A stretch of DNA of 49,750 nt. It comes from Anthoceros angustus. Lineage: Eukaryota > Plantae > Anthocerotophyta. The notes below the pieces were generated by a model. That model saw only the letters and a list, made by a program, of their open reading frames with translations. It ran no database searches and was not told where the DNA came from. Shown one piece after another: positions 6,941-46,012 of the stretch; position 1 is the first letter of the stretch, and every line of letters starts with the position of its first letter. The position numbers and the translations under genes are program-made. Location: positions 1 to 49,750 of the forward strand of contig MU008240.1 in the NCBI GenBank assembly GCA_010909165.1, read 5' to 3'.

Positions 6941-7269
6941 TCCATGAACAGTCGTGTAAGTTTTATGGCGAAACTACAGACTGATTCAAAACGAGGTGGC
7001 TAAGCTAGACTAACCTAAAAGAAATTCATGTGAACTGTGACTAAAAAACGGTTCAGTAACCTAATGCTCAGGAGGTGGAGAACTCAAGGGGCGTTTTGAT
7101 CAGTGGCACATAGAAGAAAACCAGCAACACTTGTACACCTTGAGGCTCCAGCCAACTGACACCTTGATCAGGGGTGTCGGTTGAGAGCTTGAAGGTGCAG
7201 GCTATGGCCCCTGGTGACAGTTGAAATCTGCGCCTTGAAACTTCACTGTGATCCTCTGCACGCTCTCTC

Positions 7270-10270: not shown

Positions 10271-12110
10271 CCACTCCTCTCCTCGAATGAAGTGATACTT
10301 CACATCCACATGTTTAGTCTTCTCATGAAACCTTTATTCTTTGCCAATTGGATAGCACTCGCTATCACAATGCAACTTTCTTGTGACTCAACCTTGATCC
10401 CCAAGTCTCCCACTAAGCGAGCAAGCCATATGGCTTCCTTGCAAGCCTCGATTCTTTTAACATACCACCTCTGTGGTAGATAGCATAATGCCTTGCAAGC
10501 AGAAATGGCCATGAGGCGCCCTCCATTGCACATGAAGACATAACCTGATGTGGACCTCCTTTTGTCCATATCCCCTGCATAATCAGCATCTATGTACCCA
10601 ACCACATGCATCTTCACTACCAAAACATATGCACAAAGCTTTTGTACCATTCATATACCTCATAACTTCTTTTACTGCCTCCCAATGCTTCTTGCCGAGG
10701 GTTTGACATAAACACACTAACCCTCCCCTTTGCAAAGGCAATGTCGGGGCGTGTAGCAATCATTGCATACATCAAACTCCCTATGAGTATGGGACCTTCT
10801 CCATTTCATCTTTGTCCTCCTCGAGCTTGGGCAATCCTTTGAAAGTTTCACATATGGGCAATGGAGTACCCAATGGCTTCCCCTTCTCCATGTTGAAGCG
10901 TTGAAGCACCACATTAATGTTGCGAGACAAATAAAGCGGATGCTTATGTCTATTCCGAATACACATGCCATGCCAATGTATGGCTCGCCTCTCCCAAGTC
11001 TGTCATTTCAAAGTGAGCATTCAACTTTGACTTCAACACTGAAATCTCATCCGTACTGTTTCCAGCAATTAGCATATCATCCACATAGAGGATCAAAATG
11101 AGTAAGCTTTGAACCTTAGCTTGCTTTGTATAGAGGCAATGATCCTCATCGCTACGTTTGTAGCCTTGAGAAAGCATAAATGAGTGGAACTTGTGATACC
11201 ACTCTCGTGCTGTTTCAAACCATAAAGGCTCTTCCTTAACACGCACGATTCTCTTTGCCCTTCTCAACAAAACCTTGGTTCTTTGCATGTAGACGTCCTC
11301 TTGAAGATCACCATGCAAGAATGCCGTCTTGACATCCATCTGCAAGTTCCATATCATTCCACGGCAACCAAAGCAAGAACGCCATAAGTTGTCATTTTGA
11401 CTCTTGGTGAGAAAATCTCATCAAAGTCAATGCCTTGTTGTTGCTTGAAACCCTTAGCAACCAATCGTGCCTTGTACTTTGGTTTGCCATCATGAGTATG
11501 ACCTTCATCTTGTACACCCTGCACGCAGAGTGCCTTCTTATCCTAGGCAAGCAACAACTCCCAAGTTTGGTACTTATGCAGTAATTCATTTCGATCGCAT
11601 GGCCTTCTCCCACTTTTTGTTACTCATTGACATGGCCTTTGTAAGAAGAGGGTTCCCCACAACTGTCAAAGATGACATAATCCGTAGATGGATCATACCC
11701 GTGAGGTCGTGTAATCCTCGCCTCGACTGACAAGCATTAATACTGTCCTCCTCTAAAGAAAAGTCTTCCCAAGTGGCATCTTGTTCTCATTGAAGAACAC
11801 GCCGTTAGTACGAACAACCTTTCTAGCCTCGGATCCCACAAACGGTATCCCATCTCACCACCATATAGCCAAGAAAAATACATTTCTTGGACTTAGGTGC
11901 CAACTTGTCCCAAACTCTTTGAACATGGCAAGATGCCTCATACCCAAACTCGCAGATGCTTGTAGGATGGTTCTTTCCGCACCATAGCTCCTCCGAACTC
12001 ATCAACAAATTTTTATTAGGAGATCTGTTAATAAGATGAACTGCAGACACGCCGCCCAAAACCCATTAGGCAATCCGTAGTTTGACAACAAAACCACGCA
12101 TCCTCTCCTC
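10270..12110 (-). mobile_element. Ty1/Copia element B pol remnant (integrase C-part, RT, RNase H; Tnt1/Tork-like)
   Basis: Frameshifted motifs: LPNGFWA (INT), [33 protein letters not shown] (RT), GYIDADYAGDMDKRRSTSGYVF, EACKEAIWL, HVDVKYHFIRE (RNase H). Confidence 0.92.
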
Positions 12111-15100
12111 GAATGGTTACCATCCGGCCGGTGGGAGAGGCGATCGGGGCTCCCGAGATGCACCCCAGCGGCCACACTTATCCCAATCGCTGCTTTCAGA
12201 CGCTTTGGTTTGTCCCATGAGACTTGGGGAACATAATCTTGAGAACCACACCACCAGCCACACACTACCTCAGCCTTCTAAACAAGCAAGGCGCCTCTCA
12301 CGCTCCTCTGCAGCTACACCGCGCTTCAGAACTCACCAAACCTCAACCTACAACGACACCACACAATTGCGTTACGTCAAAGAAGGTGTCTATCACGGCG
12401 CTGTGGGACCCCGACCCACACCGCAACCGTCCCTACTCCTAAGACACTCTTCTCCACACGGAGCGCCCTCTTACTTGCATTTGGGATTCGTCCCTTAGGC
12501 TCGCCTGTGGCCTCCGCTTTTCCTACACTCTAATCCTCCTCACAACTCTCTCAATCAACAACGCCTCTTCTTCTCTACTCATCTACCCTTCCTTCCTCCA
12601 CAATCTCCTACTCTAACACCAATTGCTGGCTCATTAATTCCAACTCGCCCTTACGGCACAATCGCTGGGGTCCGTCCGGAAATTAACGAGTTCTTCCTTG
12701 GGCGGTTGCTATGTGGTTTGCACCATGAGAACCTCCGAGTCTTCCCAGTCTACCCTCAAGCCGAGAGTTCCTTGAGCATCGCCACACACTCAAAGCAAAA
12801 CAATTCACCGGCAACCATTCACAAGGGGAGCTAGGGGCGCTGCAAGAGCAAGCCCTCCACCGACTGACCGCCGCGTTCTCTACCAGAGACCTGCGTTGCG
12901 CCGCACGAAATTCTGCACACAAAGTGAAGGACTCGGGAGGATGGGAGCGCAAGACACGATAATTTTACTTCAAGCTCCCTCCTTTTATAGGGAGGTCCTC
13001 ATCTGACCTCCCACGCGCCCTCACAGCCTTGCCTCCTCCTTATTTTAGTGTATCCTATTGTCGACTTTAAGTTCGACATCCAAGCATCTTGGGTAAAATT
13101 CTATTCTAGCAAAATTCACCTATGTGAGCCTTAATGGCTCTGCCAACATTCCTATCTAGCTAGTCAACACACTCTCTTGGGTGACAAGCATTAATGCCTC
13201 CTCCTCTAAAGAAAAGTCTTCCCAAGTGGCATCTTGCCCCATGTCTTCAAGCTAATTTAAGGACTTCTTATGAATCCCTTCCTTATCTTGATGCCTATCT
13301 TGAGTTCCTTCCTCCAATAAAATAGCCCGGCTCTCTTAGCCAGCTCATCCTCGCCTTCTCCTCTTCCTCTCACTTGTGGAGCAAGTGAGCCCTTGCTCTG
13401 CACCCATGTTAGGAGGTTGGTCTTCTCCTTGTGATTCTTGCTCCATTCGCAAGATCAACCCCTCTTCCTTCTTTCTGCAAGGGCCAAGGTACTCGCCTCC
13501 TTGCCGTCAAATCCATGCTAGCAGCCTTTGAATCCGCTTCTTCCGGCCTCCTACCATGGTAGGACCTTCTCCTACTAGGAGTCCCCACCAGTAGGAACTC
13601 CTCCTACCACGGTAGGAGTTCCTACCGTGCTTCTTCCTTACCCCTTCTCCGGGTGATTCTCTCCACTGTCTGCTTCCCCGCTTTCGCTTCTCACTGGCGA
13701 GTTTCTCACCCTGTTGCTTGGACACTCTCCAAGTCTAAGGCTTCCGGTTGGACATGCATGAGGGCCTCCCATGGTCATGAGGTCCCAACATCCTCCTCAG
13801 CAAGTCGCAACAACTCGTTAGTGGCCTTGAGCACCTTGTTGTGAAGATGGGCTGCAAATCGTTGTTGTGCCATCTCCAATTCTTAAATCCTCAAGCCATA
13901 CTCCATGCTCACACTTGCTTTTGTAAGCATCTCGCTCAAGGCCAGCTCACCGGTCTTGACATGGAGAGCCACATTCTCCGTCCTCTCATTCTCGGTTGGC
14001 GGATCAATCTCTCTTGTAGGGCATAATCACCAAATCTCCTCCCTCACCGCCAACATATGCTGCACCGCCTCATGACGGCCTTTCTCCTTTGCCATTTCTT
14101 CCTCCAACTCCCCTATCCTCCTAGGGAGTTGTGCATTCTGTTCTGGACTTCTCGTTCCATTTCCAATCTTTGGACAAAATGTGTCCGTTCTTCCAGCTCT
14201 TCTTCCTTCAATTCCAGCCTCCGATTTCTCAGCTCCTTTTCCATGTCACTAATCTTCACGGCTGTGTGGCTATGACCACGCTCATGTCGCCTACTTGCCT
14301 TTGTCTTTGTCCTCATTTCTTTGATTGCTCTCGTCTTGACCTTTCCTCCATTAGCGCACTTGCTTGTCTTAGCCTTCTTTTCCCATGCGCCATGTGAGCA
14401 AGTTGCTCCACCTTCTCTCCTCTCGGCCAATTGCTTGGTAAGAGCCTTGTTCTCCGAATAGTTGTTTGCCTGTAGCCTTGTTTCAAGACTCTTTTCCAAG
14501 TGCTCACTTGAGCCTCCATCCTCATAACATCCTCACCCTTTGGGTTTCCGCTTGCCTACGCAATTTCCCTTGCTTGGTAGGTCCTTGTCTTCTCCGCCTC
14601 CGTCTTCAATTCCACTCTCCTCTTGGCGGCTCCTACATCTACCTTCTTGAACATCTCCCCTATGCGCAGCATCTCCTCCAACATGTCTAAGTCTCCTTTC
14701 TTTGCCTCAGGAGACTCAAGGCCTTTGCCTTGTTCATGGGATCTTACATCCCTTGCTTCCCTATGATGGGCTCCCGCTCATCACTCGGTGGGGCAACTCC
14801 TCCCAAGTGACTCCATCCGCTCGCCCACCTAGCAGGGCCGATTGCCTTCTTATCTCCCGGCAGGAGCTTCCAAACCGTGACTTCCTTTCCCTCCTACCGT
14901 GGTAGGAGGTGCTCCAGTGGACTACTTCCCTACGTGGTAGGACTAATTCTGCCTGTAGGCCTTGTCATGAGAGGCGAAGGGGTCCCAAAGCCATGGGAAC
15001 ACCTCCCACCCTCGCAGATTCACCATGGTAGGATCTATCCTACCTTCCATCTCCGCATCCTCCAGCGGTCCAAACTTCAAATCCCCTACAACTTCTCCTT

Positions 15101-16184
15101 GCAAGTCCTCCTGCCCATCCTCGGCCTATCTTTGGAGGATTCCTTCCGGCAATAATGTCCCGGTGGTCTTCGGCACCTCCTTTACCTCAAGCACCAAGCA
15201 CTCCTTGTCCCTCTCCACATAAGTACACAGTTAAAGGGATGCTTGGAATCATCCAACTCCTTACTTGTGGTAGCCCCTCTACTTCCCACAAATGCACTAG
15301 ATAAGTGCTAAGATAGCATGGCCTTGGTGTCTTCATCCGCGTTGGGTTTGACAACTTCTCCGGTGGTAGGTGTATGCTTCATGATGAGCCCCAATCGGCC
15401 CGCTCCTTGGTGATCTTCCATAGAAAATGGAGGAAGGTAGTGCTGAAATATGACACTTGGATTGCTCACCAAGCCCAAAACAATTCTTGTGAACAATCTC
15501 ACTTGGGCTCAAGATTTGGTCCGTCCGCCAACCATTCTTAGACTTAGCCTTCATGCCTCCTTGCATAAGGTAAGGGCTCCCTTGTGTGGTGTGGATTGTG
15601 TCCGAGGGGCACCGGTCCACATTCACCCTCAATGTCGTTGTAGGCTTAGGATTCGCTCCCAAGGGAATGGTTTGTGCCAAGAGGCTAACTTCTATCGCTC
15701 GACCTTCACCTAAGTCAAGACTTACGCTATTACTCCTCTTACCTATCTACTCAACCACTACTACCCCCCGACTTGTCCTACCACGGCTCTTATTCCACGA
15801 CCGCAAATCTCATTCCACGACCGGGGCTCTCAGGGTAGTTGCTTGACCACCGAGGTGGGTCCACACCCAAACCCTAGCGACTTATTCGGCGCCGCAGCGC
15901 GCGGATCACCGCAGGCGTCCGCGTACTGCGGATCGGCCTGCACTCCACACTTCATGCACACACACACCGATTCCTAGGGACCTAAATTCCACAAATCTCC
16001 TCACGCTCCACACACACACAAGGCGCCACACTCACACAACTTTACAAGGGCTTTCCCCTTACTTCCACCTGACGGTTTGGTTTCTTTTGGATTCACACAA
16101 ATCTCCCTGCTAGCCTCTCAATTAGTTCCCTTCTCAACTCTCTCTCACACCTCGCGCCAGCGTCTGTTTAGTCACTCCTTCACC

Positions 16185-16190
<6 letters not shown>

Positions 16191-16218
<28 letters not shown>
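16191..16218. repeat. (TC)14 microsatellite
   Basis: Direct reading. Confidence 0.95.
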
Positions 16219-16221
<3 letters not shown>

Positions 16222-16552
16222 TCGCCTGGGCTTCCAACCATCCACTCAACACTTCTCTCTCAATTTGAACACAACTAGGGGACAAGTGTGAAGGAAAGAA
16301 AACCCAGGCGATTAGTCACATTGTCCCATCCTTGTCGTTCACCAAGAGTCGTATTTTCCCTTGTAATGCTCCTTCCGTTGCTCCATGGCAACTAACTTCT
16401 TCGTAGGAGGTCCTTCTCGTCTTCAAGGTCCCACGGGCCTTGCCAGAATCTTGCCTCCTCCTTGCTCGATGTGTCCTACCCTTGCTAGGTAGCTTCCAAC
16501 TTTCTTACGCCTCCTTCTGGCCAACTCGGCCCTCTTGGCTGATTTTGCCTCT

Positions 16553-18006
16553 GTCCTAAGATGGCTATCGGAAGGCGCCCACAATTGGGCGATCCTAGGT
16601 CGATGACATCCTAACCAAATTATCTTTAGGTTGCTACCACCTCACCTCGCTGCTCTGCGCGCCCTACCTCGGCTGCAGCCTCGTCCTCCATTCGCCGAGC
16701 TCTCTCACCTTGCCGGGTCGGAGTTCTCCACACTACTTCCACCTCATCGCTGCTGGAATTTGAGGTGTACCACCTTACAGGGCTTCGCATCTTCGGCCTA
16801 TTCTTGAGGATTATTCGGCTCCTCGTCCACCCAAGCTGGACCTCCTCCTCGCTCAACTCCTCCAAAGTCGCCTCCACCGCATAGCCAACCCCCACGCGTG
16901 GTAGAAGTATGCCGGGTCCTCACTTGCGATGGTAGGCCACGATCCCTCCTATTTCCACACATTCACCAACTTGGTGGTCATCTGTCGCGCTCTTTGGCGG
17001 ATCTAGCACGGAGTGTTGCTTCTGAGGTGGTTTTGAGCTCCTCTCAATTTCTTCTCGGCATCCTCCGGCTCCTTTCGTAGGTCTCGAGTTCGGCCACGAA
17101 CTTGGTCACCTCCGACACGGTCCACTAGGGCGTCCATAGATCCTGCGCCCACTTCCTTCGGCCAACTACCCTCAGAGGATGCCGGTTCTCAACACTTCCC
17201 TCGCTCCTCCCGTTGGTGCGTGGTCACCAGCTCCTCGGCGTTCTTCTCCACGCCTCTTGTTACTACTTCTTGGTAGGAGGTAAAGCTCCTACCGTAGGTC
17301 CTCCGTCCTCCACAGGTCCTCTGTAGAGGTTCACTCCCTACCAGGTGTTGTCGGCCTTCCAATCCTCAACCCCTCCGGTAGGTGGTCTCGTATCCTTCCT
17401 CCTCCTTTGTCGGCAAGATTGCTTTCACCCCTCCTCCCGTGCGGAGCAAGCTCTCGACCACCCCTAGGGCGTCTCGCGCACCTCTCAATCGGACGTCTCC
17501 AACCAGCCACACGCGTGGGGATCTCAACCGGGAGTGCTCGGCGTGAGGGACCTAGTCGCCCCTCTTATACATCGGTGGGCACCACCCCCGGATTTTAGGT
17601 CCTAAGATGGCTATCGGAAGGCGCCCACAATTGGGCGATCCTAGGTCGATGACATCCTAACCAAATTATCTTTAGGTTGCTACCACCTCACCTCGCTGCT
17701 CTGCGCGCCCTACCTCGGCTGCAGCCTCGTCCTCCATTCGCCGAGCTCTCTCACCTTGCCGGGTCGGAGTTCTCCACACTACTTCCACCTCATCGCTGCT
17801 GGAATTTGAGGTGTACCACCTTACAGGGCTTCGCATCTTCGGCCTATTCTTGAGGATTATTCGGCTCCTCGTCCACCCAAGCTGGACCTCCTCCTCGCTC
17901 AACTCCTCCAAAGTCGCCTCCACCGCATAGCCAACCCCCACGCGTGGTAGAAGTATGCCGGGTCCTCACTTGCGATGGTAGGCCACGATCCCTCCTATTT
18001 CCACAC
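16553..18006 (+). repeat. 408-bp identical direct duplication (16553-16960 = 17599-18006)
   Basis: Offset 1046 bp; identical ORFs 16626-16895 and 17672-17941; flanks differ immediately. Confidence 0.95.
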
Positions 18007-18448
18007 GCACATGGGCGGTGAGGTTAAGCCGCGTTCTCCATTCACATATAGACCGGACAGTTTCCTCATCCATGTGCCGTAATAATAGGACCCCTACTGC
18101 GGTGAGGTGCTTACCCCTCCTCCGTAGGCTACAGTTGCAGCCTATGTCCTCGCGGGCGCCACGTCGCATCCGCGCCCGCCACCGCACCTTGGGTTGGTTG
18201 CGCCAATGTCGGTGGCGGTTTCGACTACGCGTAGTGGACTCCGGCCGTCGTTCAAACAACCGGTGAGGTTCGGCTACCTCGGTTCTTTGCTTCCCCTTCG
18301 GTGGGCCCTTCCGCTACCGATCGTGGTCACGCTACCTTCCCCTTCCCTTTCTCTTGTTGGGTTCTCGATCCACGAGGCCTCATGTTGGTTCATGGGCGTG
18401 GCGGTCTCTTGCCCGGGGCCTCTCCTCTCTTCATCCTCCAGGGGCGAT

Positions 18449-18449
18449 N
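18449..18449. other. Assembly gap/ambiguous base (N)
   Basis: Single n; the sequence type changes abruptly across it. Confidence 0.9.
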
Positions 18450-18904
18450 AGATCGGCGTAATGCGCTAGAACTACTACCTCGATCTGCTAATTTCTATAG
18501 AAAGCGGGAAAAAAAATACAAAACATTTTCTTGATGTATATATTGTGTTCTTGATTTAATTAGTATTTCTAATCAAGAAACAACAAAACATATACAAAAT
18601 GCACATTTCAGATCGCAATTTTATGTGCATCACCTAGGATGCAACCTACATCGAAATGCTCGATACCATAACAAATGTAAGGTTGATGTAGATCAATTAC
18701 CATTTAGTAATTACATATTTCATTGAGTATCAAGAAAAGAACTTAAATGCTTATCTTTGAAAAGACACTATCTAGAACTTAAAAGACATAAGCATTGGTA
18801 AGGGTCGTAACCCTATTGAGCGGGTACTTCTAATATATTTATTTCAGCTACCCTTATAATAGCATATATAATTAATCTGACCTAATTCACGGATATGCTC
18901 AACA
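18450..18904 (-). mobile_element. Copia 5' LTR (18669-18904), PBS (18658-18668) and start of leader; same family as elements C and D
   Basis: Minus strand TGTTGAGC...TAATTGATCTACAT...TTGTTA then TGGTATCGAGC; shares TAGGGTTACG, GTCTTTTCA, TTCTTGAT, TAATTGATCTACAT and leader TGTAGGTTGCAT with 39301-39600. Truncated at the N. Confidence 0.75.
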
Positions 18905-19379
18905 CTATCCTTTAACATGATTGATTGGGTATTTGATGGCGAGATCATGGGCGTCATTGCGCAGTCGGGCAAGGTATGGATTTCACAAACAACGGTGATT
19001 TCAAAGAAGCGTGCGGCGTCCATTAAATCGAGGCAGGCGAGATCAATACAATCAAAGTTTCCTAATCTCCCGCTAGGAAGGCTATATGTTAAACCCACGA
19101 GATAAAAGCGGCCGGTGTCGAAGATGACAATGGATGTCATGTGACAATCCAACTTGAAACACAACGATGTTCAAGCTGCTTTCACGAGATAGGCACTAAC
19201 ACCGCCTTTCGGTACACACATGTAGCGATGACTTTCTCCAATTTTATCCTTGACCACGGTAAGTACACTGGACATGTCGGTGCTCCTTTGCCCTCCATAC
19301 CATTGCTCCAACCCGTTAGTGGAATCCGGTGTTGATCAACACGTTACCAGCGATGTCACGAGTTTGCACCGACTCCGCC

Positions 19380-19700
19380 TCAACCGAGAAATTCCTTAAG
19401 GACCAATGAAGCGAGGGGATCACTCCAGGCGTGCTTGAAAGGAACTTTCCCATGTTGTGATTGCCACAGCTGCGGTCAACTTCCAATTTCCATCGCCCAT
19501 GTGGAATTCTCGTTTGATGGTCGGTACATCGGGAGGTGAGGTCTCCATCGCATGCAAATATTCGAGGCGGTGGCAAGCCACTTCCAAGCGATTTGCGGTC
19601 GCGGCTCATGGTGTCTGAGACATGAGCGATGGCGGTCCAATCTTCCTCCACTCCCGCCCGACATTGGGCGGAGATGCAAGGTTTATGCATAGAACGTCCG
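19380..19700 (-). mobile_element. Ty3/Gypsy integrase C-terminal (GPY/F) remnant
   Basis: KREFHMGD and SPRFIGP in shifted frames. Confidence 0.5.
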
Positions 19701-20224
19701 GTGCCACCGACCCTCCCACTAATGTAGAGGGGTGACCATGACGTGGACACCACCAACACATGTGGACTTTCCATTGCTGCTTGCATTTTTGTTGTCCATA
19801 CAAAGTTGCCCGATTTTCAACACGCGTTATAGGCAATGCACCCAATGGTTAGCCAAACTATATGAGAGATGAGGACATACAAAACACGGAAAATGTATCC
19901 CTCTATGATTTGTCTTAGGTCTGGGTGGTTTTTTTAATGAAATCAAGAAAACATGGTTTTGGTAGCTTTCAGTATACCTTTCGACCCAGTACACCCTTCC
20001 AACTAGTGACCGGTGAGCCACCATCCCAGGAGACCTTGTTCTAAGTGTTACCTTCCTTAGTTTTAGCTCACATTTATGCAACCATCCAATTCGCCACTAA
20101 GGGCCATCCTCGAGCTAGGACGACCTTTTCCGTCGCACGAGGTAAGCACCTAATTCATATAAGCACTTCCTCAATTAACAACCAAGCAAACAAACTGACA
20201 CGTGAGTACGTGTAGTGCAACTAA

Positions 20225-20829
20225 TAACAACAGGAGGAGTAGCTCGCACGCTGGCACAAACACACCTCCAACAACAACACGCAAATTCCTCACACATCGC
20301 CTGAGTCATAGCTGGCCTCCTCACACACGCCTCAGACAGAGATCTGAGGACAAGCTATGATCCGAGCTTGTCTCAATGGAAGGGTCTATATATACTAGAC
20401 CGCATCGGCATATTCCTAAGATATCCTATTGGCATCAAAGATATGCCTAAATATCCTAAGAATACACTATAATATGCAAGGAATACGCCAAGCATATTAC
20501 TGCCAGCATATTATCGAGCTTATCCACTTAGCTATTGTATCCTAAGAATACACTATAATATGCATGCCAAAGCATATTACTCGAGCTTATCCACTTAGCT
20601 ATTGCTAACTATGTTAATTAACACTAATCAATGCTTAATTAGCATAAGCTACATGTTTAATTAACACTAATCAATGCTTAATTAACATAAGCACATTAGA
20701 TTAATTAACACTAATCAATGCTTAATTAACATAAGCACTTAGATTAATTAACACTAATTACTTACTTAAAGATAAGTAATTAGATTAATTAATGCTAATC
20801 AAACACTAAACCCAAGTGCGATTAGTATC
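20225..20829 (-). mobile_element. LTR 'Y' copy 1 (probably a solo LTR, flanked by ACTAA)
   Basis: Highly similar to 27994-28584; ACTAA at 20220-20224 and 20830-20834; TATA-like TATATATAG; internal ~70-bp and ~42-bp AT-rich tandem subrepeats. Confidence 0.75.
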
Positions 20830-20933
20830 ACTAAGATGACATGCCGCAGGTAAGCACTTGAATTCATATAAGCACTTCCTCGACCAACAACCAAGCAAAC
20901 AAATCTAATACGCAGTATATAGGTGCAAACCAA

Positions 20934-20942
20934 TCCCCCCCT
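20934..20942 (-). promoter_or_regulatory. Polypurine tract of the DNMT/PHD Gypsy
   Basis: AGGGGGGGA followed by T-TGGTTTGCAC (probable 3' LTR start at 20932). Confidence 0.75.
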
Positions 20943-21001
20943 GATAATGTGAGACTCCAAGTCAAAACATTATCATTAGTAGGACTACATACGTACGCAC
21001 C

Positions 21002-21150
21002 TCATGTAGTGCATTGTGCACAAAACCAATCTTCCTCGGGAATGTCGTCAAGAGGTGGTTGAACACAAAACATGTGGTATCCCCTATTGCACCGATCACA
21101 AAGAAGCATTACATCATCATCATCGACGTCCACAAAACCCGACACTCCAA
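21002..21150 (-). pseudogene. PHD finger at the C-terminus of the integrase
   Basis: Not in the ORF track. Minus strand: LECRV(C, after indel)..VDDDDVMLLCDRCNRGYHMFCVQPPLDDIPEEDWFCAQCTT* = C4HC3; stop TGA at 21002-21004. Confidence 0.93.
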
Positions 21151-21299
21151 GTCTTTGGGTGGACGCCACATATCAGTAGTTGAGGGTCCAAATTGGGTAA
21201 GTGGCATGTGCGCAGTTCTTGAGGTGATCCTTCCATCTTCGGCCATCGGATCCTTCGAGCTCAAGCACTCCATCTTTGCCTACTCGCACGACCCGCAAG

Positions 21300-22350
21300 A
21301 TGACTCACGGTGGATACCTCCAAGGTGTTGCTCGCTTCCGGCGGTAGACATAATCTCCAACTTCGAACTTGCGCACCTTGGGTTTCCATGTCCCTCCTCG
21401 TGTAAGCATAGCGCAGCTTGATCCTGTGTTGCGCTATGGCAAGGTTCTCCATTGCCATGGGCATGATCCGTTTGAAAAGCTCCCGCCTTTCGGTCTAGGC
21501 AATCATCCGCGCGCCAATCCACGTGCTTGTAGCCTTGCTTGCCTCACGTTTGGCAAAATGGTTGTCGCCCATACAACAAGTAGTATGGTGAAAAATTGCT
21601 CAAGGCTTGATTGCTCACCCCGCACTAGCACTAGGTATGGCATCCCTTCATCCCATGTCTTGGTCATTTGTGAGACAATATTTGCGCAAGGCCCGCTTGA
21701 AGGTCCGCAAGCGCTCAGAAGTCCATCGGCTTGAGGATGATCTCGACGACGTCGATGATCAATCAAGCTCTGTCAAGCAAGTCTTGAAATTCCCACGAAT
21801 TCTTTGCCCGGTGAGAACCTCGCACATGCTCCATATCGACTAAGAACGGAAGCCAAGAACGCCTTGGTAAGCCGAGAGTCACGCTTGGGTAAGATGGCAA
21901 CCTCGCACCACTTGAAATGCTCCACCATTAGCATGACATGCTTGTTTCGACGGCCTCGCATGTCCGGCATGAGATCCACACTCCACTGTAGAAGAGTCCT
22001 CGGATCGGCAGAGAGTGAAGCACAACATCATTGGTGTGAACCTTGCCTTCACTCGATCGCACTCTACATTCTGCGACCAGCCTTTCCACATCTCCATACA
22101 TCCTTGCCCAGAAGTGTGTGGGCCTGAGCATGCTGTAGGTGCGCTTAGCACCAAAATGCCCTAAGCCTTCATGCACCTGGGTGATGAGTCTCACCCGGTC
22201 CTCCGGCTTGGGTACAATTCTATCTCCCGCAGAATCACGGACATACATTATGTCCTCCTTCCAATAGTACCGAGCCACCTTCTCGCGTAGCTTGGCCTGC
22301 TTCTGAGATGAAAGCCCTTGTGGCAATTCCCCAGACCTTAGGAAGGTCAC
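21300..22350 (-). pseudogene. Gypsy integrase (H2C2 zinc-binding domain and core)
   Basis: IVPKPEDRVRLITQVHEGLGHFGAKRTY...W..MYGDVERLVAECRV; LPIRGLFY; VLMMVEHFKWCEVA; LSRYGAC; WDEGMPYL; MAMENLAIAQHR. Confidence 0.92.
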
Positions 22351-22559
22351 CGCTATTGCATCCGCCCAGATGTCCCTGACGGACTACAAAGCGATGAGTG
22401 GAGGCTCTTGATCCTCATGCGATGGCCAACATGGTATCTCGGACTACTCTCCCCGGCTGGTTCGTCATCCGAATCTTGCCCGGCCCCGTAGTGTCTTCGA
22501 CGGTAGAGAGGATTCCTTGACAACCCATCGATTAGAGTGAACTCTACCGCCGGTGTTCG

Positions 22560-22940
22560 ATGACAAAGTCATACTCGGAGAATGAGAGCCCACCGCCGCC
22601 TTTCCTGTAAGCTTGGCGCCATCAACCAATGCAAGGGTTGATGGTCGGTGATTAGTCGAAATTGATGTCCAAACAAGTACGGACGAAAGTGTCCGACGCC
22701 CACACGCAAGACATTCTCCTTCATAGGCGAGTAGTTGGACTCACTGGTTGTTGCTCCGACCGCATAGGCAATGACATGTTCCTCTTCCTTGTCATTGATC
22801 TGCGCCAAGATCGCCTATGCGCCGATTTGCTCCAATCGAAAGTACGAACGGCCATCAAGTTTGGATGACCAAGAATTGGCGAGCTCATGAGTCTACCCTT
22901 CAACTCCATGAAAGCGACTCCTCTTGAGTCCAACGCCAAG
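22560..22940 (-). pseudogene. Gypsy RNase H
   Basis: AFMELKGRLMSSPILGHP, EEHVIAYA, ESNYS, HFRPYLFGHQFRLITDHQPLHWLM. Confidence 0.92.
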
Positions 22941-23049
22941 TCACCAACTTCTTCAACAAGTCATTCAATGGCCGCAATCTCGCTCATCCGTGGAATGAAC
23001 TTCTAGTAACCGCCAAACCCAAGAATGCCCTCAACTCGAGATGTCGTTT

Positions 23050-23700
23050 GGCTCGAATGCGCGATTGCCTCCACCTTGGTGGCATGCGGCGAGATCCACG
23101 CGTGATCCAATGACCCAAGTACAACACCTTATCCTCTCAAATCGACACTTCTGGATGGGCCTTCAACCCAAGCCAGCCTAGCAAAGACTTTCAAGATGTT
23201 GTAGATGCTCCTCAAAGGTATTGCTGAAGATGATGACGTCATCAATGTAGCACTTGGCGAAATGCAAGTCCTTGAGCTCATTGTCCATGTACCTTTGAAC
23301 TGCGTTGGCGTCTTCAACCCAAATGGCATGTAATTCCACTCGTACAAGCAATCTCCCAACGCCGCTTTTGTCTTCTTGGCGATCTCTACTTGGTGAAACC
23401 CTAGCCTCAAGTCCAATGTTGAGAAGAACTTGTGACCCAATGGTGTCGAAGATCTCTTACCGTCGGCATGGGATAGTGGTCATGTGGGATTCTGCTCAAC
23501 GGCCGATAGTCACCACACATTCTCCTCTCCGTCCACAATCCATTCTCATCCTTCTTTTCGAAGAATCGCCGCATGCGTCATGCGAGTTAGATCGTCGAAT
23601 CACCCTAGCTTGAGAAGCTCTTGGCATCGATTCTCAACCAAATCCCACTCATTTTGCCGAGCCTGCGCCTGAACACCGGGTTCATCTGTCTATGTGGAAC
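23050..23700 (-). pseudogene. Gypsy reverse transcriptase
   Basis: KFFSTLDLRLGFHQV, YEWNYMPFGLK, CYIDDVIIFS (YIDD at 23238-23249). Confidence 0.95.
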
Positions 23701-23959
23701 TTCCCTTTGGTGTACTTCCCCATCTCCGCAAGCGTGAAAGCAAACACATGTCGCGATGCCTCCAACAACTCCTTTAGCCGACGCCGCTGATTGCTCTTCA
23801 ACTCGACGTTAACCACTCATGTGGTGTGGCTCGATGGCTTGCACGCTTCCTCACGTGCTCGCTCTCCTTGCCTCCAAACTCGCCTTCTCCGCTGAGATGC
23901 GATAATGTCCTTCACCCACCGAACCCGCCGCTCAACCCCGCCTTCGGTTTCGGTTGGTT

Positions 23960-24835
23960 TCCGCTAAACAACCGTCATCATGTTCACGCCAAATGCTTGC
24001 CCAAGCAGACATTCCTTCTGGCCACTCCCTTGTCTCTGTCGATCAAATCCATGGCCAACTCCTCGTGGTGTTGGCTCTCCCAAGGCCTCGCCATGTCTCC
24101 ACCACAACGGGGGCCATGGTTCTGGCGTAAGACTTGGACTTAGACACAAAGGTTGGCCAAGCCGCCATGGGGTGTCCAGTGTTCCAGTGGAAGTGCCTTG
24201 TCACCTTGATGACTTGTTGGGCATGCCTTCATGCTAGCACATCCTTGACAACATGATTAGGTCGCTTGGTGAACGACAAGACACTTCAAATGTTCCAAGG
24301 GAGCAAGGTTAGTCCACATGGACCTCAACCTATGAGCCCTCGAACCAAATTGAGTGCATCCAATAGAAGCTCCCGACCCAACACTCCTCGGATCGTGGCA
24401 AAGTCCTGAACTTGCTTCTTCACGCTCATGCCGGGCACATTCTCCAACATGTATCCACAAGGCCTTTCTTGCCCTTTCCGGATCAAGCGCAAGATCCTCA
24501 TCGTCATAGAACAATGTGCGTGGATCCTTGACCTTGACCCTTGCCCAGAGGATAGTCCTTGACACTCCCAACCCCGCGATGACAAGGTCCACCGGCTTGC
24601 CCAAGACAACTCAAATGGGACAACCCTATCATGCGAACATCCATCGGCGCCTTCCGGTAACCCTTCACCGACTCCCACGCCGGAGGTTAGGTACTCCCCA
24701 TCAAGTCTCTTACGCTCTGACACAATCCTTGCTTTTGGATCCGGGTCACAATGCACGATCTTCGCACTTTGATGCCACACTTTAGCACCGCCCAAGCCGA
24801 TCGATGCCTCCAAAGAGTTCCACGAGCACTATGCC
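23960..24835 (-). pseudogene. C5 cytosine DNA methyltransferase domain (DNMT3/DRM-like catalytic fold, non-permuted motif order) inside Gypsy pol
   Basis: Reassembled across 1-bp frameshifts: I VLVELFGGI (24803-24829); II VHCDPDPKAR; III PMDVR; IV PVDLVIAG-WECQGLS (Cys 24562-24564); V KDPRT.LFYD; VI YMLENVP (24436-24444); VIII QFGSRAHRLRSMWTNL (~24306-24350); IX EPTP.EELAM; X LLGQAFGVNMM (~23979-24008). Confidence 0.9.
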
Positions 24836-25199
24836 GCCTTCCGAGGTCGCCATGTGATGACTGGTGTTTAGGTCACAAACAGCTCAACCCTAGGCAAGAA
24901 CTTACAGCCTCCGCTCATAGGGCACCGGGTCCTCTTGCACCATCCTCCATGCCTTTTGCACGGCTCATTGCTGCAGTCACCACCCGGTGACTTGAAGAAC
25001 CTCCGAGGGTGGTTGCAACCCTAGCTTGTTTTCCTCCTCGCCGAAATCCTCCATCGTATGTTGTTAGACGCACAAGAGGTTCAAGCACGTATGGCGTGTC
25101 CTTCACTACGCCAAACACCGGGTAGACGCTGCTGGCAATGAGGTTCTCATGATCCTTGCCATGCAGAGAGGGATGCGGGCAATCCGCTACTCTGCTCAG

Positions 25200-25560
25200 C
25201 CTTCTCCACTGGGTCGATAGTAGACTGCCTCCGCCCACAAATCCACCATGACCTGTGTTTGTACAAAGCCCGCTCCCAAAGAAGACATCAAAAGTGTCTC
25301 GTGACTGACTGCAAAGGTACCTCGACAAAGGTGAAGTCTGCTTCTTGGTTTGAATGAAACCTTCAGCTTGTACCTTGTCACCCCAACACATGCTCCGTGG
25401 TCCCATGGGTCCGGATCTTCCACTTGGTTTCCTTCAACCTTTCTTGGTGGAGACCCAACGCCTTCCTTCACTCTTCTTCCAACGATCACCCGTGCTCTTG
25501 TCAATCAACACCTCCTTGGTGCGAATCCATTGATTTCAATGTGCCTCCCGATTGTTGACC
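25200..25560 (-). pseudogene. Aspartic protease domain
   Basis: IEINGFAPRRCLID (Asp codon 25500-25502) then, after a frameshift, GARVIVG...LLMSSLGAGFVQTQVMVDLWAEAVYYRP. Confidence 0.65.
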
Positions 25561-25910
25561 AAAGCCACTCCCACTGCAAAGATTCCGCGAGATGCTTGGC
25601 TCGAGGTCAAGAATGACATCATTGCCACTGCACATTGTCGACACTTGCTTCGCCTTCAAGGGTTGTCAACATCCGCCGAGTCAAACCCCTCGACTTCCTT
25701 CACGCCAACCCCATGTCTTGTAGGTCAAACATGGCATCTCCGAAGCTTTTGTGCCATCGCTCCGAACTGCATGGGTTTCTCCACATCGCCCACACTGACT
25801 TTGATGTTGCTCCCACATTGCTCGCTGGCAATGGCTCAAACGACTTTGGCATCTTGGCATAGGTTCGGAAGAGGATCCCAAGCTTCCTTCCGTGTCTTCC
25901 GACACCGGTG

Positions 25911-27200
25911 TCAAGACATCCTCTTCTTCCTCCGAGCTATCTTCTCTCGTAGCCGCCAGAGGTTTCTTCCCTTGCCCCTTGATCCGGTCACCGCCATGTA
26001 TCCAAGCTTGTGCTCATCTTCTTCGCCCCTCCGATGATGAACCGCCGCTCTCCTTGATCTTCGCCCGCACCAACTTCCAGTTTGCAAGGCGCACGAGCCG
26101 CCCATCGCCTTCTTTGATGCTTCCCGCTTTTGTCCACGGACTTCGCCTCCTCCACTCGCGCCTTTGCTCTTCGATTTTGTGGATGAGGTTGACGCAGATG
26201 CATTGGCCGGGGTTGTTGCCGATAACCCGAGGCCGCAATTCGGATGCTTCTCCCAACATGCCGCTTCATTGTGCCCTGCACTCCCACACCTAGGGCATGG
26301 CCTCACCCTTGACTCAATGCATGCTCGCACTCATGAGGGAATGGTCCGTCCTCGGCACCTCACGCAGGGGCTCACTCACTTGGGTGGGCGGCTTGTCTCG
26401 CCGAGCTCCTCCACTGACCTCCGCTCATGTCGCCCACCACCTACTTGTGCCGGAGTAATCACTTGCAAAGACGAGAAAGTGTCACGGGCCCTATCTTGCC
26501 CATCTCGTACACTTCCTTGAGGTGTAGCTTTCTTGCACGCTGTTTGTTGCATGCCTTCAGGCATATGGCAATGCCTGCAAGTATTTCTCGCAGCCTCGGT
26601 CACTCATGATCTTGGTGTCACGCACTAACCGGTCGATTCTTCGATAAGCCATCTTCAGCCTCGCCGACTTCATCTTGAAGTGTGTCACCGAGATCTTCTC
26701 ATCCGTGCTTGCGAAACTCCACCGAAGATGTCAAACATCTCTTCGATGGGATCGTGCCCACTTGCCACCGCCTCCGTCACCGGTTCCTTCGGAGCTTGAA
26801 TCGCTACTCATCGGTCCTCCACCGCTCAACAACGCCTTTTGGCGATAGCACGCCAATGCTTCATCCCCAAGTACTGACATTTGGATGATCGCTGTATCCG
26901 GCCTTCAATTCCATCTCCGCACACACCGCACTGCATTTCTCGATGAAGTCCTCCTGGCAAGCAGCCCGCCCGTGAACAACTCCATTCGATCCTTGTCTCC
27001 TCCCATCTTGACGACTCCAAGAGACAAGTCCTCCTCGCCGCTACCGAGTTGTCCGGCAAAGACTAACGTGTCTTGTGTGTTGCCACCATGATCCTTCAAA
27101 GATTGTTGATTGTGTCGCTGGGTTCCTCCGCCCTTCTGGTACCAAAATCGAGGTGTCGCACTTCTCCTCTTGGTGGACTTCACCGCCTCGATGGACTTGG
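25911..27200 (-). pseudogene. Gypsy gag with CCHC zinc knuckle (26256-26297)
   Basis: PCPRCGSAGHNEAACWEKHP = CX2CX4HX4C in ORF 25911-26330. Confidence 0.8.
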
Positions 27201-27379
27201 TTGGTAGCTCCGTCCGGATCGAGTGTGTGCATGCACTGTGTTAGTGGCTAGATCAAACCCTTAATCAAGGTTAACACACCCGCTATCTTAGATCGTGATT
27301 AGTGAAACCTCTAAGTATCTATGCATGTTAAAATCGCATAGAAATACTGCAGGCTACATTTCAAAAATGTGAGCTGGGT

Positions 27380-27830
27380 GAGTTGGATAGCAAAGGCAGG
27401 AACTCAGAGCATTGGGTGGATCAAGTATGGGGTGCCACACTGGAGTTTTGGACAGAAAGTGAAATCACATGGACGATGACATACCCATGTTCATCCGCTT
27501 CCCCTTATCCCTTGAATCCGGGGCCCAAGAGTAAAATACTTGTTTCTCCCTTGGTTGGCCTTAAAAGGCCAGCCCCTTGTGGAGGCCTCATTCCTCCCTT
27601 GGTAGGGGCTTCGCCCGCCTCCTCCTTGGCTTGGCCTTGGCCTCCTCCCTGGCCTTGGGCTTGGGCTTCCTCTCTCCTTGGCCTTGACTTGGGCTTCTTC
27701 GCCTCTCCTTGGCCTTGACTGGGCTTCTTCCTCCCTCGGCCTTGGCTTGGGCTTCTCCTCCCTCCTTCGCCTCACTTGGTCCCCTCTAGGCCTCAAGCCT
27801 GGGCACACTTAGAGTCCCTGCCTACTTGCT
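27380..27830 (-). mobile_element. Low-complexity R/P/E/K-rich gag-like fragment with possible decayed zinc knuckle
   Basis: ORF 27491-27808 (RREEKPKPRPREEEAQ repeats), followed by C..PC...FCPKL-like residues. Confidence 0.35.
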
Positions 27831-27855
27831 TAAAGAGCGAGCCGCCTCACAGAGC

Positions 27856-27961
27856 CTCGCCTAGCGCAAGATCGCCCAGCATCGCCTAGCACCTAGCATC
27901 GCCTAGCTCACCCAAGCATCGCCTAGCATCGCCTAGCATCGCCTAGCACACCAAGCCTAGC
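27856..27961. repeat. Tandem CATCGCCTAG (10-mer) repeats
   Basis: At least five exact and several degenerate copies. Confidence 0.85.
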
Positions 27962-27993
27962 ACGCCTATCTAGCCACACACGAGATCATAGCT

Positions 27994-28584
27994 TGAACAA
28001 CAGGAGGAGTAGCTCGTGCGGCACAAACACACCTCCCAGAACAACACGCAAATTCCTCACACATCGCCTCCTGAGTCATAGCTTTGGCCTCCTCACAACG
28101 CTCAGATCATATCTAGAGGACAAGCTATGATCCGAGCTTCTCAATGGAAGGGTCTATATATACTAGACTCGCAAGATATTCCTAAGATATCCTATCAAAG
28201 ATACGGAAATATCCTAAGAATACACTATAATATGCAAGGAATATGCCAAAGCATATTACCGAGCTTATCCACTTAGCTATTGTATCCTAAGAATACACTA
28301 TAATATGCAAGGAATATGCCAAAGCATATTACTTGAGCTTATCCACTTAGCTATTGCTAACCATGTTTAATTAACACTAATCAATGCTTAATATAAGCAT
28401 TAGATTAATTAACACTAATCAATGCTTAATTAGCATAAGCACATTAGATTAATTAACACTAATCAATGCTTAATTAGCATAAGCACCTTAGATTAATTAA
28501 CACTAATTACTTACTTAAAGATAAGTAATTAGATTAACTAATGCTAATCAAACACTAAACCCAAGTGCATAGATTAGTATCACA
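27994..28584 (-). mobile_element. LTR 'Y' copy 2 (TG...CA termini)
   Basis: Minus strand TGTGATAC...TGTTGTTCA; homologous to 20225-20829; no TSD or standard PBS seen. Confidence 0.8.
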
Positions 28585-29267
28585 CGGCATGACACCTCCA
28601 CACAAATCACATTTGACATCTATCGCTTTCTATCTTTGCGGCTCACAGCATATCGCGTTCAAGGAAGTAGGATGCCCATGTACCGTTTTCGCCCTTGCTG
28701 CGCACGTACCATATTTAGAGCATGCCTCTCAACCATGACCCCACCGTCATGAGGGAAAACAAGGCCGGGCAAACTTACAAGACGTTTGTTCACCCAGTAT
28801 GACTTAATAATAAGTATAGATTTAAACCTTTAGCGCCTAGAAAGGAAGATTAGTGATTAGTCTTTTTCAATTCCGATATTTAGAGGATGGGAGAAAATTT
28901 CTTGGTGTGCGATAGAGTGGGCTGTTTAGAACTTTGGAGGGAATTCGTAGCCCCAAACGCAGCCTGTTAGGAGGAGTGGGTTGCTAGTGCTTAAAGTATT
29001 GGCTTGGGGTGCTAGTGCTGCCAGCATTGGCATAGGTTGCTTGACAAGGGTTGCTGGAGGATGTTTGTGATATCAAAGAACCTTTGAGTGTATCCTTGGC
29101 TACACTTTATTTAGATTCACTAATCTTTGTATTCTTGTTAACTCACCATAGAAGTGTCACTATAAAATAATACCTTATATGAAGAGAGAAAAGGGGTAAC
29201 CTCCTCTATTTGTCATGTGGGTGCCTAGGCACTAGTCTGGTGCCTAATGGACCAAGCTACAGGCAAT

Positions 29268-29394: not shown

Positions 29395-31351
29395 CTAGAA
29401 TGAAGTCTCCAGCTTGCTCAGATGCTCTGCGATACACCGTGCGTCCATTCCTGCTCCCTTGAGACCTCTCTTGGTGAAACCTGCGGTGAATAGGCCTCTG
29501 TCCCCTTTCCAGTTATGAGGGAAAGATAAATTTGGAATTCCATCGGATCAAATGTTGAGTCATCCCAGTATCATACATGCATATAACAAGATAAGGTTAC
29601 CAAATGATCACGTTTGAAATATTTGATGAAACATAAAACATATCAATTGCAACAAAATTTATTTGTTCAGGTTTCACACTAATAGATAAAAAAATTTGAA
29701 TGTGCAGACCAACAATGCCAACAAAACTCATTCCGTAAATTTCACATCCCAGACCCTGAGTACAGAAGTTAGGACATCCCAGGCCTGAGCAAAGGAGTTA
29801 AAACACCCCAGGCCCGAGCACATAGGTTAAAAATCCAAGGCCCTGAGCTCACAAGCAAACTATATTACTCCAACAAGTTAGCGCAAAATTACCCGAAGCC
29901 AATTGGGCACGTTGCTTCTAAACCCAGTAGCAAAGATGATACAGTCGAATTCTCGGAAAGAACCATCATCAAAGATCGCTCCTGTCGCAGTGATTTCGTT
30001 CACACCTTTCACGACCTTGCAGGAAGTAGTCAAGGAGTCAACACAAAAGCTGAATGCAAATGCCTCGTCTCGAGGCGGCATCATACACCTATTGTAATTC
30101 AACCTGCCAAGATACAGACAGAATTGCAGGCAGGCACGATCTCGAGCAGAAGGCTGCATCAGCAGGCAGGCCTGTATGCGTAGAGTAATGCCAATACACC
30201 AGGTACACTTTGAACATCAAAAGTTACCGTGATATGGCCGGTTTGAATCATCTTGAGTGTGCCAACATCCAGAACAGGAGTGATGCCCTCCTTGTCCTTG
30301 CGCTCAAGAGGCCCCAGCGAGGGCCTCGGGATGCCCCACTTAGCTGTGTCTCCCATCACGAAACGGGCATACAGAAGCAGCAGCATGTCGGTGTATCGAT
30401 AGGACAGGTAACGCAAGAGTGTGGTAGCCACCACAAAAGTTGAGATCCCAAACATCTCCCGAGGGAGAACGTGCATCTGCAGCACATGAACAAGATCAAC
30501 ATATTACCAATGAGATCTTTGTCATGATCGTCAGGGAATTCAAAGGTGACAAGAGATGAAGAGAGACAATGAAGAGAGGCAAGTGTTGCAAAGCAGCAAT
30601 TTGGGAGTGCATCAAATACAGAGTAGCTCACCGGGCTCCGCACAACGAGGCTCGTTCGGGCGCCATGTTGCGCCAGGTCCAGCGACACTTCGAACCCGGA
30701 GTTTCCACTGCCCACCACTAGCACCTTCTTGCCAGACCACTCCCGGCCGTTGCGGTACTGACTGCTGTGGAGCGCTCTCCCACAAAACACAGGTATGCCT
30801 GCAATTGATGGGGTGACTGGATCCGCATTCTCTCCTGTTGCGACCACCAGCCATCTCGTGAGATAAACAGATCTTTTCCATTTTGGATGGATGCCGGTGT
30901 TGGCGACTTCGCATGAGGACGTCACAACTCGCCACATCTGGATACTCTCCAGGTATGATGCGTCAACGACGCTGTGGTTAAACAGCGGGCGGATGGCAAA
31001 TTCCTCAGCGTAATGTTCCAAGTAAGCTTGGAACTGCTTACGCGATGGGTAGGCGGGGTAATCCGCAGGGAACTTCATATAAGGAAGCTCTGAGTGGTCC
31101 TTGGGTATGTGGAGGTGAAGACGGTCGTACGTCTTATTCTTCCAGAGCGAGCCGACGCAGTCAGCCCGCTCTAGGATCATATAGGGTATTCCGCGCTGCG
31201 TCAGGCACGCAGCCGTGGCCAGTCCGGCAGGGCCGGCTCCCACAATGACGGCACCCCGCACAAAGGTAGCCCCACGCGTCACGGATTCAAGCTGGAAATC
31301 CCGTGGAGCAAAGCCATAGGGTCCATCAGCTCTGGCAGCAGAAGAAGCCAT
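29395..31351 (-). CDS. YUC: YUCCA flavin-containing monooxygenase (indole-3-pyruvate monooxygenase), ~420 aa. Exons 30632-31351, 30228-30476, 29893-30015, 29395-29564
   Basis: GAGPAG (FAD), [26 protein letters not shown] (FMO motif), GSGNSG (NADPH), [37 protein letters not shown]. Phase-0 introns at conserved YUC positions (GT..AG for introns 1 and 2). Exon 4 as assembled has a GG acceptor and a 1-nt deletion. Alternative upstream ATG at 31393. Confidence 0.95.
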
Positions 31352-31770
31352 TGTCACAAACCTGTCAACAAGCAAGACCCACTGTAAGAACATACTTGGC
31401 GACCAAGCTAGCTCTCACTCAAGCTATTCACGTTGTGGAGTCAGGATCTGAGAAACAGCTCTCCACCAATGTGTGAGGCTGCCCAGATCTATCCTTAGCT
31501 CCAGCTAGGAGCAGAAGCTACCTACAGCTACAGCAATCAGACACAGCAGCAATGTCAAGTTTGGAAGTTGGAGGCACATGCTACCACTAGCTTTCGCGCG
31601 TTACTGATGAAAGATGAGAGATTTTGGAAGCCTCTCTTCACAGAGAGCATGACCGAAGAGAGGTTTCCCAGGTCACTCCTTGCCTCAACCGAGGCGCAAC
31701 AGCGTCATGCACAGCAGAAAATCAAAGGTTGTAGGGTCGCTTTTGATGATGATCACCTACACGCAGTCTA

Positions 31771-39300: not shown

Positions 39301-39552
39301 TAATGATATACAATGTTGATATCATAGTTAGGGTTTAGGGGTTTAAGTTATCCATATATTATATGAAGATATAGGGTTTACTAGATATGGTGTCGTTTCA
39401 TTAGGTTACGTCTCTAAGTGAATAGATACAACGTTTCATTAAGTTTAGTTTTAGTTGTCTTTTCATGCATAAGCAACTTACTTCTTTCTTGATCCAACAA
39501 TGTAATTATTCTATAATGTTTAATTGATCTACATTAGTCCATAAAATCTTCA
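39301..39552 (+). repeat. 5' LTR of Copia C (TA...CA)
   Basis: Near-identical to 45757-46012; followed by TGGTATCAGAGC. Confidence 0.95.
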
Positions 39553-45756: not shown

Positions 45757-46012
45757 TAATGATATACAATGTTGATATCATAGTTAGGGTTTAGGGTTTA
45801 AGTTATCCATATATTACCAAGATATGATAAGCTAGGGTTTACTAGATATGGTGTCGTTTCATTAGGGTTACGTCTAAGTGAATAGATACAACGTTTCATT
45901 AAGTTTAGTTTTAGTTGTCTTTTCATGCATAAGCAACTTACTTCTTTCTTGATCCAACAATGTAATTATTCTATAATGTTTAATTGATCTACATTAGTCC
46001 ATAAAATCTTCA
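45757..46012 (+). repeat. 3' LTR of Copia C (TA...CA)
   Basis: Follows PPT AAGTGGGAG; followed by TSD ATATA. Confidence 0.95.

Follow-up and report, generated by a model that had tools for sequence, protein, structure and literature searches.

The stretch of DNA analysed here (49,750 nucleotides of contig MU008240.1, assembly GCA_010909165.1, from the land plant Anthoceros angustus; hereafter, the window) carries on its minus strand an entire Ty3/gypsy retrotransposon whose coding region holds both a DNMT3-like C5 cytosine methyltransferase (DNMT) domain and a PHD finger. The earlier note on this DNA had claimed these two domains, and both were found (DNMT profile 112 bits; PF00628 E 2.2e-11). 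We demonstrate here in which order the domains lie, that the catalytic residues are kept, how the repeats are split and that conservation extends across a large clade; we favour, with moderate confidence, the reading of a Gypsy-DNMT3-kind element in which DNMT and PHD are separate tools used in one replication cycle, and not a coupled reader-writer.

A DNMT domain and a PHD finger in one gypsy element

The element presents the Ty3/gypsy order, i.e., protease, reverse transcriptase (RT), RNase H and integrase, together with terminal direct repeats in a split A/B form and a polypurine-type G-run (Table 1). It had been placed at 20140..27240; the 20140 end stands, and the extent is larger (20140-28594). 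Pfam, applied to three stop-read-through frames, detected the PHD, the integrase zinc domain, RNase H and, weakly, RT. The single polyprotein proposed for this element cannot be read in the window, where no open reading frame (ORF) of the element exceeds 172 amino acids (aa); it is inferred from relatives, in which DNMT and PHD lie within single called proteins and, in the related locus L009, protease, DNMT-RT and integrase-PHD share one frame. Among the related loci with sufficient flank, B-A-B was found in 17/31 and the full A-coding-B-A-B arrangement in 8/31. Four of these eight full-length loci display, by eye, 4-bp target duplications, consistent with insertion by the integrase, and none was readable around the window copy.

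Table 1. Anatomy of the window copy of the element (positions in the window)
Feature	Position	Strand	Basis
Ty3/gypsy retrotransposon, entire; split direct repeats A-coding-B-A-B	20140..28594	-	repeat comparison
Repeat A, 5' copy; TG start on minus strand	27996..28594	-	vs 3' copy: 559 matches, 16 substitutions, 25 gap events
Gag-like region	26256..26670	-	weak similarity to L009 gag at 26670-26569 (tblastn E 0.009)
CCHC zinc knuckle within gag-like region	26297-26256	-	read from sequence
Aspartic protease-like domain, ~6 frameshifts	25211..25552	-	44 bits; highest shuffle score 16
DNMT3-like C5 cytosine methyltransferase, unrearranged motifs I-X; ~9 frameshifts, 1 stop	23967..24829	-	profile from relatives
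DNMT motif I	24820-24803	-	sequence reading
DNMT motif IV with catalytic Cys	24573-24556	-	sequence reading
DNMT ENV	24453-24433	-	sequence reading
DNMT motif VIII	24346-24305	-	sequence reading
DNMT motif X	24008-23988	-	sequence reading
Reverse transcriptase + RNase H; 18 frameshifts, 1 stop	22506..23804	-	Pfam, frameshift-aware scoring
RT motif YIDD	23249-23238	-	sequence reading
Integrase: HHCC zinc domain + core	21400..22311	-	Pfam, frameshift-aware scoring
Integrase C-terminal SH3-like region (our label) + linker; approximate boundaries	21151..21400	-	
PHD finger (C4HC3), predicted unmodified-H3K4-reader type, final Pol domain; first Cys pair out of frame	21005..21150	-	
G-run directly before repeat B, likely polypurine tract	20935..20941	-	L009 and L015: same position
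Repeat B, first copy	20848..20934	-	vs second copy: 74 matches, 9 substitutions
Repeat A, 3' copy	20226..20841	-	repeat comparison
Repeat B, second copy = element 3' end	20140..20225	-	repeat comparison

PF00145 (Pfam DNA_methylase) had no match in the three stop-read-through frames, and the searches made with window fragments failed because of frameshifts: two frames of the DNMT region compared directly with PDB gave no methyltransferase, an Atlas search gave no usable match, and word-indexed homolog searches gave 0/1351 and 0/356 candidates. The domain was detected with a profile built from relatives. The underlying library search, whose query frame consisted chiefly of fragments of RT, RNase H and integrase and lacked the PHD, listed 150 of 3276 proteins; the profile was seeded from 7 of these 150 and matched 18 of them. 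Against the window, it scored 41 bits in one frame (independent E-value 5e-14) and, when frameshifts were taken into account, 112 bits, whereas 30 shuffles reached at most 21 and 94 other 1-kb window pieces at most 22. An extended profile spans motifs I-X at 24829-23967, and the glycine loop of motif I, the Cys of motif IV, the ENV and both arginines of motif VIII are kept. Judged by its sequence, the window DNMT is a real and complete domain.

When the stop-free DNMT of L009 was compared with PDB, DNMT3A/B/C filled the first 29 of 47 rows, ahead of DRM2 and M.HhaI (best E 2.6e-8). The label "DNMT3-like" is given on this ranking, on the motif VIII sequence and on a published tree, with no rooted tree built here. 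A DRM-type rearranged enzyme was rejected. A host DNMT3 gene caught by chance was also rejected, given the absence of DUF3444 in Pfam scans and of introns in intact relatives; plant host DNMT3s are described as carrying DUF3444, not ADD (PMC6453930, PMC12344493).

A catalytically dead enzyme, an outcome that the earlier note had seen as fatal to its proposal, is not what the relatives display. A search with the DNMT of the relative P0113 gave 147 matches, 120 of them listed, with Monoraphidium, Chromochloris and Haematococcus (green algae) as named labels; in these listed relatives, the Cys is kept in 117/120, the EN in 117/120 and the HRxR in 111/120. Among 32 algal-type proteins, none lacks the Cys, the E, the N or the second Arg of motif VIII (32/32 each), and the mean identity reaches 0.45 for DNMT, 0.47 for RT and 0.48 for integrase. 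In 20 decayed loci, pairwise dN/dS was 0.42-0.47 for DNMT, 0.34-0.36 for RT and 0.37-0.38 for PHD. In the relatives, the DNMT is under purifying selection and conserved like RT. Motif IV reads W-E-C instead of S-P-C in most members. In loci L009-L080, both catalytic arginines of motif VIII are often W, Q, C or H, each being kept in 7/20, and these changes follow the pattern of post-insertion CpG decay.

The PF00628 match lies in a stop-read-through frame of the window, and the first C-x2-C pair of the finger is in a different frame from the remainder. The closest PDB matches are ATXR5, KMT2D, UHRF2, CHD4, BAZ2A and KDM5B/A. An ADD identity was rejected, the finger being a canonical C4HC3 PHD and no DNMT3 or ATRX ADD appearing among 60 listed of 66 PDB matches. 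An Asp stands three residues ahead of Cys1 in 19/23 loci and 14/32 algal-type proteins, a Leu precedes Cys3, and the cage Trp is absent. Readers of unmodified H3K4 are reported to have an acidic residue before Cys1, a hydrophobic one before Cys3 and no cage Trp (PMC3241642), and the finger is predicted to be of this H3K4me0-reader type. A chromodomain as reader was rejected: Pfam Chromo found none after the integrase in the window, and a single-sequence chromodomain profile found none in the window or in 80 loci. No second (amino) methyltransferase was detected in the window by a profile made from the amino-methyltransferase-like tail seen in algal relatives; a DAM profile was not run.

The breaks of this copy are mainly small indels. 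Frameshift-aware scoring gave 15 frameshifts and 1 stop in integrase-PHD, in addition to those of RT-RNaseH (Table 1). For RT plus integrase, this is 33 frameshifts versus 2 stops, against 0-3 frameshifts versus 2-10 stops in 10 related loci. Between the two copies of repeat A, there are 16 substitutions and 25 gap events in the window, against 24 and 0 in L009; a comparison of the run X1 contigs with the window lists 190 indels and 113 substitutions. Much of this indel-rich damage probably stems from a long-read assembly that was left unpolished, in a copy that would be fairly young, and real decay may contribute. The breaks are not enriched at homopolymer runs, and so do not point to one type of error. 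The depth of the run X1 contigs is ~600-1500 over protease-DNMT, and is also higher at the PHD end, versus ~140-490 over RT-integrase; contig depth is not copy number, and we did not use it as support for non-autonomous DNMT-bearing derivatives.

One clade with two layouts

The RT-RNaseH tree (FastTree) included 142 proteins and the window, after removal of proteins with <280 aligned columns and of most duplicates within clusters. The window sits in a clade of support 1.0, which contains all the DNMT-bearing and all the post-integrase-PHD proteins of this tree (11/12 profile seeds came from this same clade, a possible bias); outside the clade, a PHD follows RNase H in two proteins. Within the clade, the DNMT is located either before RT (window, P0167 and loci) or between RNase H and integrase, and the PHD constantly follows the integrase. 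We also built separate RT, integrase and DNMT trees (54 rows, 3 short rows dropped; 33/81 eligible proteins used). The congruence of RT and DNMT trees, a check suggested in the earlier note, was seen for the before-RT layout, which forms one group in the RT (1.0), integrase (1.0) and DNMT (0.94) trees, so that the DNMT travelled with RT. The window represents a distinct lineage, with an identity to the loci of 45% in RT and 34% in DNMT.

Among the 120 listed DNMT-bearing relatives, each either does not show the before-RT layout or begins too late for RT. A PHD is present in 106/120; 11/120 end before the PHD site, and 3/120 run through the whole SH3-like region and have no PHD, one of them stopping 7 aa beyond it. 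The metagenome loci (best 80 of 446, picked by RNase H patterns) were merged into 63 clusters, of which 24 have both domains, 26 have one or both sides uncovered (L040, which has DNMT and PHD, is counted here) and 13 are truncated; none has a protease without DNMT, and there is no clean single loss. Exceptions were found among called proteins. P0167, one complete gag-to-integrase ORF with a DNMT (E 1e-12), has no PHD, and neither have the DNMT-bearing P0250 and P0273. Conversely, P0075 and P0140 keep an intact PHD and a DNMT without motif IV Cys or ENV, P0072 has a PHD and no DNMT in the RNaseH-integrase slot, and P0103 has a PHD with a DNMT judged by eye to be degenerate or missing. Several PHD-only proteins begin right before RT, which leaves the before-RT DNMT slot uncovered. 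These single-domain exceptions make the DNMT and the PHD separable. Independent distribution of the two domains, the other fatal outcome named by the earlier note, is seen only in part: they co-occur in most relatives, and single losses go both ways. Since all co-occurrence lies inside one clade, it reflects shared descent and does not constitute independent evidence.

Three other observations concern these relatives. At L070:3113-7564, both A repeats, RT, integrase and PHD are present with only ~600 nt in place of gag, protease and DNMT; this copy is an internally deleted derivative. In green-algal-type proteins (P0039, P0196, P0253 and other matches of the P0113 DNMT), a region that we label Tudor-like follows the PHD in 95/108 tails. 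An amino-methyltransferase-like fold, whose motifs are often degenerate, is present in 65/108 tails and in 59/60 of those of at least 300 aa; Atlas feature matches of 0.94-0.95 link these tails to clusters in which 65% of members have N6_Mtase and 26% MTS. The algal relatives would thereby have a toolkit of DNMT3, PHD, Tudor and second methyltransferase; neither the window nor the 80 loci have this tail. In P0250 and P0273, the Tudor-like region directly follows the SH3-like domain, a possible swap of one reader for another.

Two tools probably used in sequence, or less likely a coupled reader and writer

Gypsy Pol is normally cleaved between RT-RNaseH and integrase. In the reading that we favour, the protease would cut Pol, and the DNMT would go with or beside RT in the particle, where it would methylate the newly made cDNA, ensuring camouflage or pre-silencing. 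The PHD would remain on the integrase, in the slot of the chromovirus chromodomain, and would direct new copies toward nucleosomes unmethylated at H3K4 and away from active promoters. Since the PHD is fixed on the integrase tail while the DNMT moves, two tools used in sequence are the simplest account. Methylation of cDNA by an element-encoded DNMT has been proposed for SymbioDIRS-Dnmt3, and self-methylation and camouflage, both put forward in the earlier note, had already been proposed for such elements (PMC5890265). PHD steering of integration has been proposed for other PHD elements, and PHD fingers occur commonly in retrotransposons for which a DNMT is not reported (PMC6673714; Gypsy-7a_cRei, bioRxiv 10.1101/2022.06.16.496473).

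Several points weigh against this reading. Phage C5 methylases match the L009 DNMT with E 5e-9 at 24% identity, about as well as DNMT3A (E 3e-8 by a different program). The H3K4me0 preference of the finger is only a prediction. In yeast, no methylation was obtained with the Klebsormidium enzyme, a result that the authors of that study call inconclusive (PMC5890265). The observed/expected ratio (o/e) of the window element is 0.44 for CWG and 0.78 for CpG; this depletion of CWG beyond CpG is the mark expected from host CHG methylation, and the element therefore bears no sign of escape from silencing, contrary to the camouflage idea. Moreover, the very high co-occurrence of the two domains also fits interdependence. 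A complex prediction with the DNMT and PHD of P0113, in which the alignment was not used (score 0.19, mark 0.34), was counted neither way.

In DNMT3A, binding of H3 by the ADD relieves autoinhibition. The earlier note held that the element parallels DNMT3 logic. In a truly coupled form of this idea, the PHD would read H3K4me0 and recruit or activate the DNMT, the new copy and its flanks being methylated at the insertion site. We regard such a coupling as doubtful. The presence of PHD in most DNMT-bearing proteins and its predicted H3K4me0 type speak for it, as does the algal layout, in which the DNMT lies a median of 89 aa before the integrase and DNMT-integrase-PHD could stay one chain; RT and integrase, too, may stay associated after cleavage. 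However, ~940 aa including the whole RT-RNaseH-integrase separate the PHD from the DNMT end here (~500 aa in the algal layout), the finger is a canonical PHD, the DNMT occupies two positions, and each domain has been lost alone in some lineages. In addition, DNMT and PHD distances are uncorrelated in the 32 algal-type proteins (rho -0.01, versus 0.42 for RT-DNMT and 0.20 for integrase-PHD), in what is a weak test, the PHD being short. The parallel is overstated: the finger has sequence features predicted for an H3K4me0 reader, and the architecture is not that of DNMT3. An allosteric coupling of the DNMT3A style is possible mainly in the algal layout.

Animal DNMT3A/3L likewise associates, in one translation product, a DNMT3-type catalytic domain and a zinc finger for unmethylated H3K4 (predicted here) (PMC12344493, PMC3241642). 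It differs in that the ADD, a GATA-like finger plus an atypical PHD, adjoins the catalytic domain N-terminally in one stable chain, whereas the PHD of the window is C-terminal, past probable protease cuts. We are equally doubtful about the broader proposal that an ancient Gypsy clade, covering chlorophytes and streptophytes including land plants, rebuilt DNMT3A logic. There, an integrase-borne PHD would read unmethylated H3K4 and bring its own DNMT3-like enzyme to the insertion site, copies would write on themselves and their flanks a methylation independent of RNA-directed DNA methylation (RdDM), the lineage may hold active copies, and the algal branch would add a Tudor-like reader and an amino-type methyltransferase.

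The DNMT could also act independently of the PHD, by methylating its own integrated repeats or other copies and thus limiting copy number or seeding host heterochromatin. This option was raised in PMC5890265; a plant host DNMT3b performs RdDM-independent de novo CG/CHH methylation (PMC6453930), and 8 related loci are strongly CpG-depleted (o/e 0.34-0.65). We consider it unlikely: host enzymes explain the CpG loss equally, the window copy shows CWG loss instead of CG loss, and selection against its own spread would be hard to sustain. Still more unlikely is another job in the particle, in which the DNMT fold would bind or modify RNA or RNA:DNA hybrids, or shield cDNA from deaminases, and would not mark genomic CG. 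The negative yeast result and the W-E-C form of motif IV fit this idea, and PMC5890265 had already considered roles on RNA or against deaminases; however, the related SymbioDIRS Dnmt3 domains methylate CG (PMC5890265), and every catalytic residue for C5 methylation is kept. Finally, a functionless DNMT carried as a neutral passenger by a PHD-bearing Gypsy clade, for which its degenerate or missing state in P0072, P0075, P0140 and P0103 could plead, is largely refuted and most improbable, given a DNMT conserved like RT and integrase across ~45%-identical lineages with near-invariant catalytic residues.

Among known systems, the closest by published description is KnitGypsy-Dnmt3 of Klebsormidium nitens (de Mendoza et al. 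2018, PMC5890265), which shares the Gypsy long terminal repeat (LTR) type, an unrearranged Dnmt3-like domain inside Pol, kept catalytic residues and DIRS-like A-coding-B-A-B repeats; no Klebsormidium-labelled sequence was among our matches. Its host is a charophyte alga, whereas that of the window is a land plant, and a PHD is unmentioned in the text and supplementary files examined, although Fig. 4c may show one. EpiLTRs (bioRxiv 10.64898/2026.05.21.726589) are also LTR retrotransposons joining DNA methyltransferases and a histone-mark reader, but with a chromodomain and DAM plus a DNMT4-sister enzyme, in Cymbomonas and Euglena, instead of PHD and DNMT3-like domains. Gypsy-7a_cRei and chromoviruses share a chromatin reader in Pol and a proposed steering away from genes (bioRxiv 10.1101/2022.06.16.496473; PMC6673714). 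The former has no DNMT among its listed domains and, according to the legend, a PHD between RNase H and integrase; the reader of the latter is a chromodomain. Our literature searches, in which subscription journals and figures were poorly covered, found no paper on PHD and DNMT3 in Gypsy, nor on chlorophyte or land-plant members. Writer-plus-reader LTR elements are thus already known (EpiLTRs), and the pairing of PHD and DNMT3-like domains is a variant of the known Gypsy-DNMT3 kind.

Surroundings of the element and its wider meaning

Low CWG o/e (0.34-0.57) extends over 17 kb of the window (10001-27500), versus ~1.3 around an FMO-like gene, which suggests strong CHG methylation of this repeat block, including unnamed sequence at 12-20 kb. 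The FMO-like exon (Pfam; 30356-31414, minus strand) has an unbroken frame of ~260 aa and resembles a YUCCA auxin gene, which fits a land-plant host. An exact 408-nt duplication (16553-16960 and 17599-18006) is either a very recent event or an assembly artefact. Copia remnants of gag, protease-region and RT lie at 5684-6973 and 10950-11417 (both minus strand), and dispersed repeats at 39301-39552 / 45757-46012 (95%, direct) and 43248-43886 / 46737-47388 (67%, inverted).

In print, Gypsy-DNMT3 elements come from one charophyte alga. Our data suggest that their clade is large and conserved; it has named chlorophyte members and includes the land-plant lineage described here, which is only ~45% identical in RT to its closest sampled relatives. 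Nearly all members of this clade pair the DNMT with a predicted H3K4me0 reader. Because some algal members are intact, the DNMT occurs naturally at two positions and single domains have been lost in nature, both the methylation of self-cDNA and the link between reading and writing become testable. Moreover, hundreds of such DNMT domains, mostly missed by Pfam, are relevant to DNMT counts in plant and algal genomes.

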